From: Escherichia coli
Lineage (GTDB): Bacteria > Pseudomonadota > Gammaproteobacteria > Enterobacterales > Enterobacteriaceae
DNA: 64,000 nt
Assembly (NCBI RefSeq): GCF_024700885.2
Contig: NZ_CP117016.1
Strand: one strand, 5' to 3'
Under the pieces are notes generated by a model. The model did not search any database. It saw only the letters and a program-made list of their open reading frames with translations, and was not told the origin of the DNA. A program made the position numbers and the translations under genes. Each line of letters opens with the position of its first letter. Within the stretch, counting starts at the first letter, position 1. Positions 4,309 through 37,712 of this stretch are shown here, piece after piece.

Positions 4309-7189
4309 TCTTTTCACTCATCAGGGGCATTGTTTGCTGCAACGCGCTGACGTTCTCCCACACTTTCCAGCCTTCAGGATGCACATATTCGGCTTTCCCG
4401 TTCTGGCTGCCGGAAATCTGCGACAGAATAGCCATGCCTTGCGGCTCGACCACCGCCTGATGGAAGAAATCAGCAAGTTTTTGCGGCGTCAGCAGTTTTA
4501 TCTGGGCCACGATTTTATCACGCGAATCGAAGCGCATATTGCCGCGATCGAAATCTTTACTTAACTTCGATGCTTCTTCGCCGAGCGTTTGCGGTGCCTG
4601 CAGCATCTGGGTTATTACCGCCTGCTGGATTTGCGCAAACTCTTCTGGCTTCATCGTCCGCAATTTTGCCTCTGCGGTTGGGAAAAACGCCTTGTAACGC
4701 TCCCACAAGAATGAAGGCTGTTTATCATTGCTTTGCAACAGGAAGCCCATGCCCCACTGACGCCCCACGCTCATTGGAAACGCAAACACGGCATAGCCCA
4801 ACTGTTCTTCGGTACGCAACTGATTGTAGAACCACGGCTGTACGATCTGCCCCAACAGAGAGCTATAGGCTGAGCTGGTGTATTCATCGTAGCCAGTCGG
4901 TACAAATACCGCTGCCAGTGCGGAGTCGGTACTGTTACCGGCTTTTTCAAAGATGACGGATTGTTTTTTATCGACCACGACATCTTTGTTACGACACCAC
5001 TCCGAACCATCAGCGCCCAACTGTTTTTGCACATCGCGTGCCAGCGTTGTTGCCTGGGCTTCGGTCATGTTGCCAATAACCATAAACTCTGGTCGAGCCC
5101 CTGATTTTAAGGCGTCGCGATAGGCCAGCACCTCTTTCAAAGTGATTGAAGGCAAAATTTTGCGCCGTTCATCTCGCGAGAAGTACGGCACTTGCGAGAG
5201 CATCTGCGCGGGCATAATCGCCTGCTCGAACGCTTTGCCCTTTTCTGCGGAATCCATCATCTGGTTATACCAGGACTTCGCCTGCTCAAGCTGATCTTCC
5301 GTAGCGGTATAGCTAAAGTAGCCCTCGAGCAATGCCTGGAACAGCTGCGGCAGGCGCTGGGTGTAACCATTGGCATTAACCATAAGGCCGTTGTTAGCGT
5401 TGGTGGAAAAACTTATGCCACCAACCGACGCCTGGTTGCTTAACTGATCAAGCGCCAGCCCTGCGAGATAATCATTGAGCGCAAACATCACCTGATTGCG
5501 GGCGCTATCCATGGCTTTCGGATTACGCAAAATCAGGCTGACATCAGCTTTGGGTTCGCTGGAAAAATAACGGCTTGGCGCATAGACCACACGCAGATTC
5601 GACTCATCAACAATAAGCTCTGGATGGTCATATTTCTTCTCTGACTTAATCAGCGAGAAATCGTCAGGAATATAGGGGTTAAGCTCTGGCAAAGAGAGCG
5701 CAATGTCGGCGGCTTTTTTCTGCCAGTCAGCGAAAGTTTGTGCGCTAATTTTATCTACCTGATACGGCGCATCGACAAAGTAAGCCGTTTTGTTGTGCGG
5801 CTCTTTCGGGCTGATATACCAGATACGCGCATTCTGCGGCGTCATCATCGCCAGGCGTTCTTTTACTGCTTTAGCGTCGTACCGATCGGCAATATTGACT
5901 GCATCCAGCGTATGCTCAACAGGAACGCGAATCATGGTATCTGCCAGCCATTCGACGTAATCCATATCACGGGTGATTGACGGATAACGGAAGTCGATAT
6001 CCAGCACATTCGCCAGTTCATCGAAGTATTGTTTATCGATCCCTTTTTCACGTAACAGATTGAGGTAGCTAAAAATGGCCGCCACAACCTGATCGCGATT
6101 CGCCAGACCTTTATCGGTTAAAGAAGCAGAGATCGCTAATACGCCGCTGTTGCCGTTGACGATAGGATCGGAGTTGGCGCTAATGCCCTCAACTAATCCC
6201 TGCTTTTGCAGCCAGTCAGAAAGTGTACCTGGGCTGCGATTACCAATCAGATAGGTAATCAATTCATCCGTTTTACTACGGAACTTCGCTGAGTTGTTCT
6301 CGATGCGAAACTCAACGCGCAGAACTTTACGCGGCAGCGCCGGGACGTAATGAATGATAATGCCCTTTTGCGCGTCGGTGACTACCGGCACGGTGATTTC
6401 CGGTTTTTTGCTCTCGTTGTTCGGCACGCGACCAAAGGTGTCCGCCGCCATTTTTGCCAACTCCGGCAGCGGTTTATTGCTGTAAATAACCGCCTTCATC
6501 AGATTGGCGGAATAGTACTTCTCGTGGAAATCTTTCAGCGCCTGCTGCACCGGATTTCCGGGTTTGTCGCTTAAAGTTTCGAGGTTACCACCAGAAAACT
6601 TTGAACCGGGGTGTGCCGGGTTAATGGTTTCTGCGCTGACCTGCGCCATGCGCATCCCGTCACGCGTACGCGCCATGGTTAATTCGGCATTCACTGCATT
6701 ACGTTCACGTTCGGCGTATTTCTTGTCGAGCAAGGGTTCTGCAATAGCGTCCGCCAGGCGGTCTACCGCACCGGGCAAGGCGTCGTTCTCAACTTCCAGA
6801 TAGAAAGCCGTGCGATACGGTGCCGTGCTGGCATTGTGACTGCCGCCGTGCATTTTGAGATATTCGGCCAGACTGTCAGCCTGCGGGTACTTTTTCGACC
6901 CCATCAGACTCATATGTTCAAGGTAATGTGCCAGCCCCTGGTACGCCTCGGGATCTTCCAGCGACCCAACGGGAACCACCAGCGCCGAGAGCGATTTAAC
7001 CGCCTGCGGATCAGAAACCAGCAAGACCACCATACCGTTATCCAGACGTATAGCCTGATACTGGCGGTTATCTTTATCACTTTTACGGATGGTTTCCTGA
7101 ATCGGCTGCCATCCCGTTTCTGCCTGACTTAAGGGTGCCCAAAGGGCAACAAACAACAATAATGCTTTGAACCAGGTGCTGCGGGGCAT
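4301..7189 (-). CDS. ptrA: Protease III (pitrilysin), M16 zinc metalloprotease
   Basis: 962-aa ORF with signal peptide and inverted zinc motif HYLEH; stop overlaps recB start. Confidence 0.95.
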   Translation of the reverse strand: MPRSTWFKALLLFVALWAPLSQAETGWQPIQETIRKSDKDNRQYQAIRLDNGMVVLLVSDPQAVKSLSALVVPVGSLEDPEAYQGLAHYLEHMSLMGSKKYPQADSLAEYLKMHGGSHNASTAPYRTAFYLEVENDALPGAVDRLADAIAEPLLDKKYAERERNAVNAELTMARTRDGMRMAQVSAETINPAHPGSKFSGGNLETLSDKPGNPVQQALKDFHEKYYSANLMKAVIYSNKPLPELAKMAADTFGRVPNNESKKPEITVPVVTDAQKGIIIHYVPALPRKVLRVEFRIENNSAKFRSKTDELITYLIGNRSPGTLSDWLQKQGLVEGISANSDPIVNGNSGVLAISASLTDKGLANRDQVVAAIFSYLNLLREKGIDKQYFDELANVLDIDFRYPSITRDMDYVEWLADTMIRVPVEHTLDAVNIADRYDAKAVKERLAMMTPQNARIWYISPKEPHNKTAYFVDAPYQVDKISAQTFADWQKKAADIALSLPELNPYIPDDFSLIKSEKKYDHPELIVDESNLRVVYAPSRYFSSEPKADVSLILRNPKAMDSARNQVMFALNDYLAGLALDQLSNQASVGGISFSTNANNGLMVNANGYTQRLPQLFQALLEGYFSYTATEDQLEQAKSWYNQMMDSAEKGKAFEQAIMPAQMLSQVPYFSRDERRKILPSITLKEVLAYRDALKSGARPEFMVIGNMTEAQATTLARDVQKQLGADGSEWCRNKDVVVDKKQSVIFEKAGNSTDSALAAVFVPTGYDEYTSSAYSSLLGQIVQPWFYNQLRTEEQLGYAVFAFPMSVGRQWGMGFLLQSNDKQPSFLWERYKAFFPTAEAKLRTMKPEEFAQIQQAVITQMLQAPQTLGEEASKLSKDFDRGNMRFDSRDKIVAQIKLLTPQKLADFFHQAVVEPQGMAILSQISGSQNGKAEYVHPEGWKVWENVSALQQTMPLMSEKNE

Positions 7190-24407: not shown

Positions 24408-24495
24408 AAAAAAAACCTGCGCATCCGCGCAGGTTGGTGCAAGAGACAGGGTACGAAGAGCGTACCGAATAATCTCACCAATCAATACCTCTGGG
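24408..24495 (-). ncRNA. omrA: Small regulatory RNA OmrA
   Basis: Minus strand reads CCCAGAGGTATTGATTGGTGAGATTATTCGGTACGCTCTTCGTACCCTGTCTCTTGCACCAACCTGCGCGGATGCGCAGGTTTTTTTT (88 nt) with terminal GC hairpin plus U-run; between aas and galR. Confidence 0.85.
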
Positions 24496-24610: not shown

Positions 24611-24692
24611 AAAAAAAACCTGCGCATCTGCGCAGGCTGGTGTAATTCATGTGCTCAACCCGAAGTTGACTTCACCTATCAATACCTCTGGG
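24611..24692 (-). ncRNA. omrB: Small regulatory RNA OmrB
   Basis: Paralogous copy sharing the 5' end CCCAGAGGTATTGAT and the 3' terminator CCTGCGCAGATGCGCAGG plus U-run with omrA; about 115 bp from omrA. Confidence 0.85.
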
Positions 24693-27206: not shown

Positions 27207-27327
27207 AACAAACTCCAGATAAGTGCTTTTTTATGATTACGCCACATCATAAAAAGAATAAAAAATATCGATTTATGTTGAGTCTATGCAAAAATGATAT
27301 GGATTACCGGATTGCGAGAGAGCGCTA

Positions 27328-29070: not shown

Positions 29071-30489
29071 TCAGACGCCGATATTTCTCAACTTCTCGCC
29101 TGCCATCAGTTTGCGTTCGATATGTTCCAGCGTGACATTTTTGGTTTCCGGAATGAGCCAGAAAGTAATGCCCACAAACGCAATGTTCAGCCCAGTGTAG
29201 AGCCAGAACGTACCGGCAGCGCCAATGCTATCAAGCAGTGTCAGGAAGGTCGCGCCGATAATCATATTCGACACCCAGTTTGTCGTCGTTGAGCAGGTGA
29301 TGCCAAAATCGCGGCATTTCAGCGGCTGAATCTCAGAGCACAGGATCCACACCACTGGCGCGGCGCTCATCGCATAACCGGCAATACACATCATCGTCAT
29401 GCCAACAGAGAGCCAGGACAAGCCACTGGAAGCCGTACCGTTATCAAACTGCATCAGGCAATAGCCCAGCACCAGAGTGCCTAACGCCATCACGCTGAAA
29501 CCAATTTTCAGAGCCGGTTTACGCCCTGCTTTATCTACCGTAAAGACCGCAATGAAGGTGGCGAACATAAAGGTCAGCCCCACGACCAGAGTCGCAATCA
29601 TCTGTTGTTCTGTGGTCGTAAAGCCCGCCATTTTGAAGATACGCGGCGCGTAGTACATGATGATGTTCATACCGGTAAACTGCTGCATCGCCTGCAACAA
29701 CATACCGAGAAACACAGCACGACGGACGTTACGGTTGATCTTAAACAGTGCCCAACCGCCCTGTTTTAACTTCAGGCTTTCACGAATTTCGTTGAGTTCT
29801 TCTCGCGCTTTTTCCGACGTATCGCGCAGCATACGCAACACTTCTTCCGCCTCAATATGACGCCCTTTTTCCGCGAGCCAGCGCGGGCTATTTGGCAGGA
29901 AGACCACCAGAATAATCAGCAGGACCGCTGGTAAAGCAAGAACCCCCAACATTGCGCGCCAGTTACCGCTATAACTGAACGCTGTATCGGATAAAAACGC
30001 CAGCACGATGCCGAGTGTGACCATCAACTGGTACATACTGATCATCTTACCGCGAACGTTTTCACTTGCCATTTCAGAAAGATACAGAGGAGCGGTGTAA
30101 GACGCGATCCCGACAGCAATGCCCAGCACCACACGAGCGGCGATTAACATCTCTACGCTGGTCGCAAAAGCGGACCCTATAGAACCGAGTACAAACAGGA
30201 TGGCCCCCGCCATCAGGCTGTATTTACGCCCCAGGCGGAACGACAGCCAACCATTAAACAGCGCACCAATTGCTGCGCCGAGCATCATGCTACTGACCAC
30301 CCATTCCTGCAAACGACTGGTCAGCACAAAGTGATCGGTAATGAACGGCAACGCTCCGGCGATTACGCCGATATCAAGACCAAATAACAATCCTGCGACC
30401 GCAGCAGCTACCGAAACAAACATATTCATACGCCGCGTATCCCGCAAAGAACGTGGCGTTAAAGCAGATTCCGTATTGATAGTAACCAT
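29071..30489 (-). CDS. araE: Arabinose:H+ symporter (MFS sugar porter)
   Basis: Internal Met of ORF 29071..30618 gives 472 aa [33 protein letters not shown]; RBS AGGA upstream. Confidence 0.9.
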
Positions 30490-30757
30490 TTTTTCCTGCC
30501 AGCAGAGAGTAAGACATAGTGAAAAAATACGTGAACAATTCACACAGGTGTCAGGTCGGAAATAGCATAAATATGGATTAAATTGCTGCGACATGTCGTT
30601 ATGTGATGGATATTCCAATTTTCAAATTAAGTTGAATAATTGAGATTATTATTAACCACCTAATTTTAAAGCAGATAAAATTCATAAAGTTCATTAATTG
30701 ATAATTGATATGGATTATTTCATAACCATGATATGGATTATGATGATCTACAGATAT

Positions 30758-30781
30758 AAAAAACCCTGCCATGCGGCAGGG
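30758..30781 (-). terminator. Intrinsic terminator downstream of kduD
   Basis: Stem CCCTGCC/GGCAGGG (30764-30770 / 30775-30781) followed on the minus strand by a U-run (plus-strand A-run 30758-30763). Confidence 0.6.
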
Positions 30782-30803
30782 TCATAAAAGTAAGAAGAAT
30801 GGA

Positions 30804-31565
30804 TTAACGCGCCAGCCAACCGCCATCCACGGCAATGGTATAACCATTCACATAATCTGAAGCACTGGAGGCAAGAAACACTACCGGCCCCATCAGGTCA
30901 CTCGGCAGTCCCCAACGGCCAGCTGGAATGCGGTCGAGAATTTCCGCGCTACGTTGTTCATCTGCCCGTAGTTGTTGAGTATTGTTGGTCGCCATGTAAC
31001 CCGGAGCTATCGCATTAACATTAATGTTGTGTTTAGCCCATTCATTCGCCATCAATCGCGTCACGCCCATCACGCCGCTTTTTGATGCGGTATAAGAAGG
31101 CACACGGATCCCGCCCTGGAAGGAGAGCATTGACGCGATATTGATAATCTTGCCGCCATTGCCTTGCGCGATAAAGTGTTTCGCCGCTGCCTGAGACATG
31201 AAGAATACGCTCTTGATATTCAGGTTCATGACATCGTCCCAGTCTTTTTCGCTGAACTCGAGAGCATCTTCGCGCCGAATCAATCCGGCGTTATTCACCA
31301 GGATATCAATATGACCAAACTCAGCTACCGCGCGATCCAGCAGTGCTGGAATGCCATCAATCTTTCGCAGATCGGCGGTCAGGCTTAAAAAACGACGCCC
31401 CAGCGCCGTGACCTGCTTGATGGTTTCAGTCGGTTCAACGATGTTAATGCCAACAATGTCACAGCCCGCTTGCGCCAGCCCCAACGCCATCCCCTGACCC
31501 AGTCCAGTATCACAACCAGTGACGACCGCAACTTTACCTTCGAGAGAAAATGCACTTAAAATCAT
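30804..31565 (-). CDS. kduD: 2-dehydro-3-deoxy-D-gluconate 5-dehydrogenase (SDR family)
   Basis: 253-aa SDR ORF with Rossmann motif TGCDTGLG. Confidence 0.95.
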   Translation of the reverse strand: MILSAFSLEGKVAVVTGCDTGLGQGMALGLAQAGCDIVGINIVEPTETIKQVTALGRRFLSLTADLRKIDGIPALLDRAVAEFGHIDILVNNAGLIRREDALEFSEKDWDDVMNLNIKSVFFMSQAAAKHFIAQGNGGKIINIASMLSFQGGIRVPSYTASKSGVMGVTRLMANEWAKHNINVNAIAPGYMATNNTQQLRADEQRSAEILDRIPAGRWGLPSDLMGPVVFLASSASDYVNGYTIAVDGGWLAR

Positions 31566-35842: not shown

Positions 35843-36475
35843 ATGGGGCTTTGTAGTCGTTATAAAAGTCTTACATGCAATAGTTGCTCAATGCATTGCC
35901 AAATAATGCCAGAAGAGTCACCGCGTTTGCAGTATTGCGCAAACTCGTGTTTTTGTATGTGGCCCGAAGAAAGTTCATATTTTAATCGTGGTGTGGTGGA
36001 AGGTATCTTAACAAAAAACCACAATGCGAGATTAAGCGGATATATTTTTGTCGATTTTTCAGTAAGTTTTTTACGTCTATTCCTTGAAAAAGACTGGATT
36101 GACTATCTTGCAAGTACTGACATGGGGATTGTTTTAGTCAGCGACCGAAATATGCAATCGTTAGCTAACTACTGGCGAAAACACAACTCTGCAATATCTG
36201 CTGTCATATATAATGATGATGGTCTTGATGTTGCCAATGAAAAGATCAGACAACTATTTATTGGTCGTTATTTATCATTTACCAGAGGGAACACATTAAC
36301 TCAGATGGAATTCACCATAATGGGATATATGGTTTCTGGTTATAATCCATATCAGATTGCTGAAGTTCTGGATATGGATATCCGTAGCATCTACGCGTAC
36401 AAGCAACGAATCGAAAAGAGAATGGGTGGTAAAATAAACGAGTTATTTATTCGTTCACATTCGGTCCAACATTGA
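35843..36475 (+). CDS. yqeH: LuxR/FixJ-type HTH transcriptional regulator (ETT2-island remnant)
   Basis: AT-rich ORF; strong RBS GGGAGG 9 nt upstream of the Met at 35843 (ORF track frame opens at 35783); C-terminal LuxR-like HTH segment QMEFTIMGYMVSGYNPYQIAEVLDMDIRSIYAYKQRIEKRMG. Confidence 0.7.
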   Translation: MGLCSRYKSLTCNSCSMHCQIMPEESPRLQYCANSCFCMWPEESSYFNRGVVEGILTKNHNARLSGYIFVDFSVSFLRLFLEKDWIDYLASTDMGIVLVSDRNMQSLANYWRKHNSAISAVIYNDDGLDVANEKIRQLFIGRYLSFTRGNTLTQMEFTIMGYMVSGYNPYQIAEVLDMDIRSIYAYKQRIEKRMGGKINELFIRSHSVQH

Positions 36476-37638: not shown

Positions 37639-37712
37639 TGGAGCGGGCGAAGGGAATCGAACCCTCGTATAGAGCTTGGGAAGCTCTCGTTCTACCATTG
37701 AACTACGCCCGC
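37639..37712 (-). tRNA. glyU: tRNA-Gly (anticodon CCC)
   Basis: Minus strand reads GCGGGCGTAGTTCAATGGTAGAACGAGAGCTTCCCAAGCTCTATACGAGGGTTCGATTCCCTTCGCCCGCTCCA; cloverleaf with anticodon CCC and encoded CCA end. Confidence 0.9.

Follow-up and report, generated by a model that had tools for sequence, protein, structure and literature searches.

Two short boxes far upstream of the arabinose transporter gene araE, here called D1 and D2, are retained in about 60 enterobacterial species at positions fixed to whole helical turns, a pattern that points to a distal operator of araE resembling araO2 of the araBAD system. D1 and D2 are very probably functional cis-elements, and they probably bind AraC. 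The best explanation for them is that they act as araO2-like distal half-sites by looping to the half-site I1, which we hold to be about as likely as not. The araE control region is built of two layers, a promoter-proximal layer of known architecture and a distal layer that we infer.

The araE control region

The window, i.e. the whole stretch of 64,000 nucleotides that was analysed, is from Escherichia coli. Over positions 30400-30900 it has 100% identity with strain A10 and 95-99% with 5,093 further complete genomes. The interval 30560-30745, in which the initial annotation had noted direct repeats, lies between the minus-strand genes kduD and araE and is therefore the araE control region, for which the minus-strand reading is the proper one. 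The ATG of araE is at 30489 and the kduD-araE intergenic region comprises 314 bp with 32% G+C. The upstream boundary of the control region is the kduD terminator. An Rfam scan of the intergenic region found no small RNA above threshold, and small ORFs in it were rejected since conservation gives them no support. From araE towards kduD, the region includes the following features:

29071-30489, minus strand: araE, arabinose:H+ symporter, 472 aa, annotated as araE in A10 (100% identical) and in K-12
30524-30554, minus strand: araE core promoter, -35 element CTGACA from 30554 to 30549 and -10 element TATTTT from 30529 to 30524, supported by an 18-genus alignment
30551-30567, minus strand: araE I2, low-affinity AraC half-site, TGCTATTTCCGACCTGA, 21 bp downstream of I1 and overlapping the -35 element
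30572-30588, minus strand: araE I1, high-affinity AraC half-site, CAGCAATTTAATCCATA, with AGC in 58 of 59 loci and TCCAT in all 59
30599-30620, minus strand: CRP site, 16-bp core TGGAATATCCATCACA (30617 to 30602), centre at 30609.5
30653-30665, minus strand: tentative IHF-like core AATTAGGTGGTTA, candidate bend element about halfway from D2 to the CRP site
30709-30725, minus strand: D2, candidate second distal AraC-type box, 17-mer TTATGAAATAATCCATA, TCCATA from 30714 to 30709, with the 13-mer copy 30706-30718
30732-30748, minus strand: D1, candidate distal AraC-type half-site, 17-mer GATCATCATAATCCATA, TCCATA from 30737 to 30732, with the 13-mer copy 30729-30741
30762-30783, minus strand: kduD intrinsic terminator, a 9-bp stem followed by a T-run, kept across genera
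30804-31565, minus strand: kduD, the gene upstream of araE

Elsewhere in the window, the tandem small RNA genes OmrA/OmrB were found on the minus strand at 24408-24495 and 24611-24692 (Rfam RF00079, 96.6 and 86.1 bits), their place between aas and galR being the expected one for this region of E. coli. Also a tRNA gene is present on the minus strand at 37642-37712 (Rfam RF00005, 71.6 bits), beyond the yqeH-yqeK cluster.

Repeats on the araE strand

The 13-mer TGATATGGATTAT occurs exactly at 30706-30718 and 30729-30741, the two starts being 23 bp apart, and the related sequence ATATGGATTA noted at 30571-30580 was borne out and is contained also in both 13-mers. Read on the araE strand the 13-mers are ATAATCCATATCA, and the motif that they carry is TCCATA, the A-box (core) of AraC half-sites; the two TCCATA boxes, D1 and D2, are oriented like I1, from which they lie 160 and 137 bp upstream, respectively. 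The outline given in the initial annotation, AraC direct repeats together with a CRP site upstream of araE, was upheld, but several of its details were not. The statement that the copies match the araI half-site poorly was wrong for the ATATGGATTA copy, which is the core of araE I1: the full site CAGCAATTTAATCCATA fits the pattern xAGCxxxxxxxTCCATA and agrees with araI1, TAGCATTTTTATCCATA, at 14 of 17 positions. The poor match had been reported because the plus strand, the wrong one, was read. The further copy TGATGGATAT is indeed present at 30604-30613, but it sits within the CRP site and does not form a separate copy of the repeat. The distal 13-mers are not activating I sites; they are located about 192-231 bp upstream of the likely transcription start.

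A direct repeat of at least 13 bp was obtained for the 314-bp region in 0.14% of mononucleotide shuffles (P about 0.0014) and in 0.48% of first-order Markov simulations (P about 0.0048). The pentamer TCCAT is present five times on the araE strand of the intergenic region and zero times on the other, the expectation being about 0.9 per strand (P for at least five, 0.002). Perfect identity of the two 13-mers is strain-specific: in K-12 MG1655 the D2 copy is ATAATCCATATTA, with 12/13 positions shared. The conserved core of the distal copies is TCCATA(T).

The fifth TCCAT, within TTAATCCATTC, overlaps the kduD stop codon at 30799-30806 in the window strain; K-12 has TTAATTCATTC at the kduD stop, and this TCCAT is therefore not conserved. 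More copies of TGATATGGATTAT are scattered in the window at 27295-27307 (plus strand), 36342-36354 (minus strand) and 5957-5969 (minus strand). Of these copies one is exact and falls within yqeH, and two match at 12/13 positions, one of them between lysA and lysR, 21 bp ahead of the lysR start codon, and the other at 5957. Allowing at most two mismatches, seven matches were counted window-wide against 1.2 expected, a surplus that may reflect codon or oligonucleotide bias. A dispersed repeat element was rejected, the other 13-mer matches in the window having no shared flanks.

Promoter-proximal layer

Conservation was studied from a sample of 80 araE loci, one per species, across Enterobacterales. 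The anchor TCCATCACA was carried by 62 of these; leaving out two on truncated contigs gave 60 usable loci, and the counts below are mainly based on 59 non-redundant ones.

The TGTGA-N6-TTCCA motif of the initial annotation was rightly likened to a CRP site, but its place is 30602-30617 and not, by one base, 30601-30616. On the araE strand the site reads TGGAA-TATCCA-TCACA. Its left half varies (TGTAA in 32/59 loci, TGGAA in 13/59) and its right half TCACA is invariant; the distance from the CRP centre to the first base of I1, 21.5 bp, is equal in araE and K-12 araBAD, and both of these observations support the CRP assignment. Also in the outgroup TCACA is found 29 bp upstream of the TCCAT of I1, in 15 of the 17 loci with a recognisable I1. 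The sequence TCCATCACA within the CRP site is invariant in the 62 loci, these being the loci anchored on it. Embedded in the CRP site, from 30610 to 30605 and 33 bp upstream of I1, is the invariant TCCATC, here called the C-box. Oriented like I1, it might be an AraC half-site competing with CRP. In araBAD, too, the CRP spacer varies little between genera, and the invariance of the C-box alone therefore needs no AraC. TCCA was absent from the CRP spacer in the outgroup loci.

An 18-bp weight matrix trained solely on the araBAD sites of eight genera gave araE I1 as its best match in 56 of the 59 araE loci. The low-affinity site I2 has a conserved CCTGAC, and its TCC-ACCTGA pattern is similar to araI2, TAGCGGATCCTACCTGA. 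Measured from the C-box, the positions of I1 at +33 and CTGAC at +56 are kept in almost every one of the 62 anchored loci, that of CTGAC in 61. In a published study araE figures among the known AraC ChIP targets, and the Wade laboratory primer JW073 (CGCAGCAATTTAATCCAT) corresponds to the I1 sequence (PMC3738151).

Across the 18-genus alignment, neither the four -10 bases T, A, T and T (TAnnTT) nor an A at 30517 varies, and this A is likely the araE +1. Between the -35 and -10 elements, at 30531-30546 on the minus strand, there is an imperfect CRP-like palindrome, TGTGAATTGTTCACG, with a 5-bp instead of a 6-bp spacer; K-12 differs from it at two positions (CGTGAGTTGTTCACG) and it is not conserved in other genera. 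The proximal layer of CRP site, I1, I2 and -35 element is known biology, as confirmed by its geometry and conservation. It is reportedly the established architecture of the araE promoter pE, described by Stoner and Schleif in 1983.

Conservation of the distal boxes

Conservation in other enterobacteria had been set beforehand as the check on which the repeats could fail, and it was found: D1 and D2 occur together in 59 of the 60 usable loci, which represent about 20 genera and some 60 enterobacterial species, Escherichia, Salmonella, Citrobacter, Klebsiella, Enterobacter, Kosakonia and Siccibacter among them. At D1 all 59 non-redundant loci have TCCATA, followed by T in 57. At D2 all 59 have TCCAT and 51 the full TCCATA. 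The DNA around the boxes is much less alike, mean identity being 41% in the 13-nt spacer between D1 and D2 and 47% in the spacer from D2 to the CRP site. The 18-genus alignment shows D1, D2, the CRP site, I1, I2/-35, -10 and the Shine-Dalgarno sequence as invariant islands, the rest being scrambled.

The pattern xAxxxxxxxxxTCCATA is common to araI1 and araO2 (PMC11983282). D1 fits it, with the A at position 2 of the 17-mer in 49/59 loci; at D2 this position is T in the window and A in 37/59 loci. In several genera D1 reads cATTGTCCATAT, like araO2 (consensus AAACCAwTTGTCCATAT), and in Klebsiella, Raoultella, Huaxiibacter, Leclercia and Lelliottia the D1 orthologues are (c)ATTGTCCATAT, again close to araO2. 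Neither box has the AGC B-box. The araBAD-trained matrix scored D1 at 5.5 and D2 at 0.2 in the window, the 95th percentile of best hits in shuffled sequence being 9.2; it gives the genuine I2 about -19, however, and is therefore a poor judge of weak sites.

In the outgroup genera Franconibacter, Cedecea, Buttiauxella and Mangrovibacter there is just one distal box, and it lies 150-154 bp upstream of I1. Its position is that of D1 in the short-spacing class described below, and the distal element is therefore ancient. In some species D1 is locally doubled as TCCATATCCAT, giving overlapping boxes 6 bp apart (L034, -240/-234; L060, -128/-122 relative to the C-box; and the Cedecea locus L063, -288/-282). 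In Mixta sp. Marseille-Q2659 the distal boxes are replaced by a TCCGCAG tandem array of about ten copies, from about -270 to -195 upstream of araE.

The idea that D1-D2 drive a second promoter was rejected, as no conserved -35 or -10 element is present downstream of D2. No description of D1, D2 or other distal araE sites was found in the reachable full-text literature; neither was the araE upstream sequence found printed in that literature.

Spacing of the boxes and comparison with araO2

D1 and D2 are 23 bp apart in 58 of the 59 loci; in the remaining one, a Raoultella genome, they are 33 bp apart. From D2 to the TCCAT of the CRP site the loci form two classes, 104-106 bp in 46 loci and 94-96 bp in 13, the latter consisting of Klebsiella, Raoultella, Kluyvera and Phytobacter, and none of the 59 has a distance of 97-103 bp. 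From these values, single-base slippage is tolerated and larger changes are solely those of whole helical turns, although the two classes may stand for just two or three independent evolutionary events.

As a positive control, the araC-araB intergenic regions of K-12 and seven further genera, altogether eight, were compared (L083, L085-L091). The spacing between araO2 and I1 is 211 or 212 bp in seven of the eight genera and 200 bp, one helical turn shorter, in Shimwellia pseudoproteus, and the DNA between the two sites has diverged among the genera. O1R and I1 are separated by 53 bp in every one of the eight. By its spacing pattern araO2 bears the clean evolutionary mark of a looping operator, and by the same comparison D1 and D2 evolve as araO2 does. 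The helical phase of a D1/D2 loop agrees with that of araO2-I1 at 10.5 bp per turn and disagrees at 11.1 bp per turn; the latter is the in vivo helical repeat reported for araBAD.

Alternative explanations for D1 and D2

D1 and D2 could together make up an independent site to which a second AraC dimer binds, similar to araO1 and serving as a reservoir, a competitor of looping or an upstream co-activator site, which we consider unlikely. Two boxes in the same orientation at a near-fixed 23 bp do recall the I1-I2 and O1L-O1R repeats, but genuine adjacent AraC half-sites are mostly 21 bp apart, a spacing measured in the araE loci for I1-I2 and assumed at extraction for O1L-O1R. One species has the boxes at 33 bp, so that phase seems to matter more than adjacency, and the outgroups have a single distal box. 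Furthermore, the phasing kept with the promoter-proximal sites implies communication with them.

Binding of another protein, with TCCATAT as its target, or a structural role in which AraC has no part, is quite improbable. The conservation of just a 6-7-bp core, the missing AGC B-box and the low matrix scores would suit such a role, but the core is the AraC A-box itself and the boxes are oriented like I1 at a promoter known to be AraC-dependent, and araO2 too combines a good A-box with a poor B-box. We know of no E. coli regulator motif, whether of DnaA, IHF, KdgR, CytR, Lrp, MarA or XylR, that fits TCCATAT.

That the repeats arose by chance in A+T-rich intergenic DNA or by a recent local duplication and have no function, as the restriction of full 13-bp identity to some E. 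coli strains (K-12 having 12/13) and the near-copies of the 13-mer elsewhere in the window without shared flanks might suggest, is extremely improbable and effectively refuted by the boxes and spacing held across about 20 genera in surroundings down to 41-47% identity, as well as by the chance probability of the repeat (0.001-0.005).

The DNA between D2 and the CRP site

The IHF core WATCAANNNNTTR, which has an A/T-rich 5' flank, is matched by the tentative element at 30653-30665 at 7 of 9 positions, a weak match in E. coli. In the 104-106-bp class the corresponding position has 7-9 of the 9 in most genera and 8-9 in many; in the Klebsiella/Kluyvera class the element is weak. Conservation of the TT at 30655-30654 exceeds 90%. 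The spacer from D2 to the CRP site also shows AA/TT periodicity with a peak at 10.0 bp, the z-score of which is inflated because the sequences are related. A role of the IHF-like core and of the periodicity in bending the DNA of a would-be loop is speculative.

A possible distal operator at araE

If D1 and D2 form an araO2-like distal operator, they would be low-affinity half-sites consisting of an A-box only. In cells without arabinose, one AraC dimer would have one DNA-binding domain on I1 and the other on D1 or D2, forming a loop from the about 130-160 bp of A+T-rich DNA between I1 and D1/D2, which may have an intrinsic bend or be bent by IHF. Such a loop would keep AraC pre-loaded at araE and hold basal expression down. 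Arabinose would then shift the second AraC domain to I2 and CRP would bind between the loop ends. In the known proximal layer, arabinose-bound AraC on I1 and I2 activates araE together with cAMP-CRP. The binding of AraC to D1 and D2, the loop and its effect on expression are what we infer from the conservation and geometry described above.

To our knowledge, araE is generally described as simply activated, and the classical literature known to us treats pE as having no araO2-type repression. AraC looping at araBAD is a textbook example of DNA looping. In ChIP/qPCR, AraC has been detected at araE in cells grown without arabinose, and ydeN was bound solely with arabinose (PMC3738151). The occupancy of araE without arabinose is consistent with pre-bound apo-AraC, and a distal operator, if real, would explain it.

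Looping would in that case extend to a transporter gene on whose basal level and positive feedback the all-or-none induction of pBAD expression systems depends, and D1/D2 would offer engineers a defined element with which leakiness and threshold could be tuned. The genuine araO2 has the same comparative signature, namely 6-bp boxes that stay invariant while the DNA around them diverges and spacing that jumps by whole turns, and this signature offers a general route to looping operators from genome sequence. A joint reading would make araE a second natural AraC looping system with the C-box as a fifth A-box, a pre-bent or IHF-bent loop of about 105-160 bp bridged by apo-AraC, and apo-AraC also rivalling CRP at TCCATCACA, the whole setting basal AraE and the all-or-none threshold; taken with all its parts, this is doubtful.

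Comparison with known systems

The distal pair, if undescribed before, would be a further member of the looping-operator kind, and the proximal elements are already known. The closest parallel for the pair is the araO2-araI1 loop of araBAD/araC, with which araE shares a distal A-box TCCATA with a poor B-box in the orientation of I1, a CRP site between the distal site and I1, and a distal-to-I1 spacing that is conserved save for jumps of one helical turn. The two systems differ in that araE has two distal boxes, not one, at a span of 137/160 bp versus 211 bp, and has neither a divergent araC promoter nor araO1 inside the predicted loop. The flanks of D1 and D2 are also less conserved than those of araO2.

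The proximal layer resembles the araI1-araI2 and CRP arrangement of pBAD. In both, 21 bp separate I1 from I2, the overlap of I2 with the -35 element is 4 bp, and the order of CRP site, I1, I2 and -35 element is the same, the layout being identical base for base. Unlike pBAD, araE has an invariant TCCA in the CRP spacer, giving TCCATCACA, and its -35/-10 spacer is one base longer.

D1 and D2 are like araO1 (O1L-O1R) in having the same orientation, a separation of about two helical turns and a position upstream of the CRP site. The araO1 half-sites are, however, 21 bp apart and have AAC/GGC B-boxes, whereas D1 and D2 are 23 bp apart (33 in one locus), and araO1 overlaps the araC promoter, whereas no promoter is evident at D1-D2.

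With the GalR-HU loop at gal and the IHF-assisted loops, the predicted araE loop would have in common a short length of about 100-160 bp and an A+T-rich, possibly bent centre. The candidate IHF core near the midpoint of the loop adds to the likeness to bend-assisted loops, which is no more than a resemblance.
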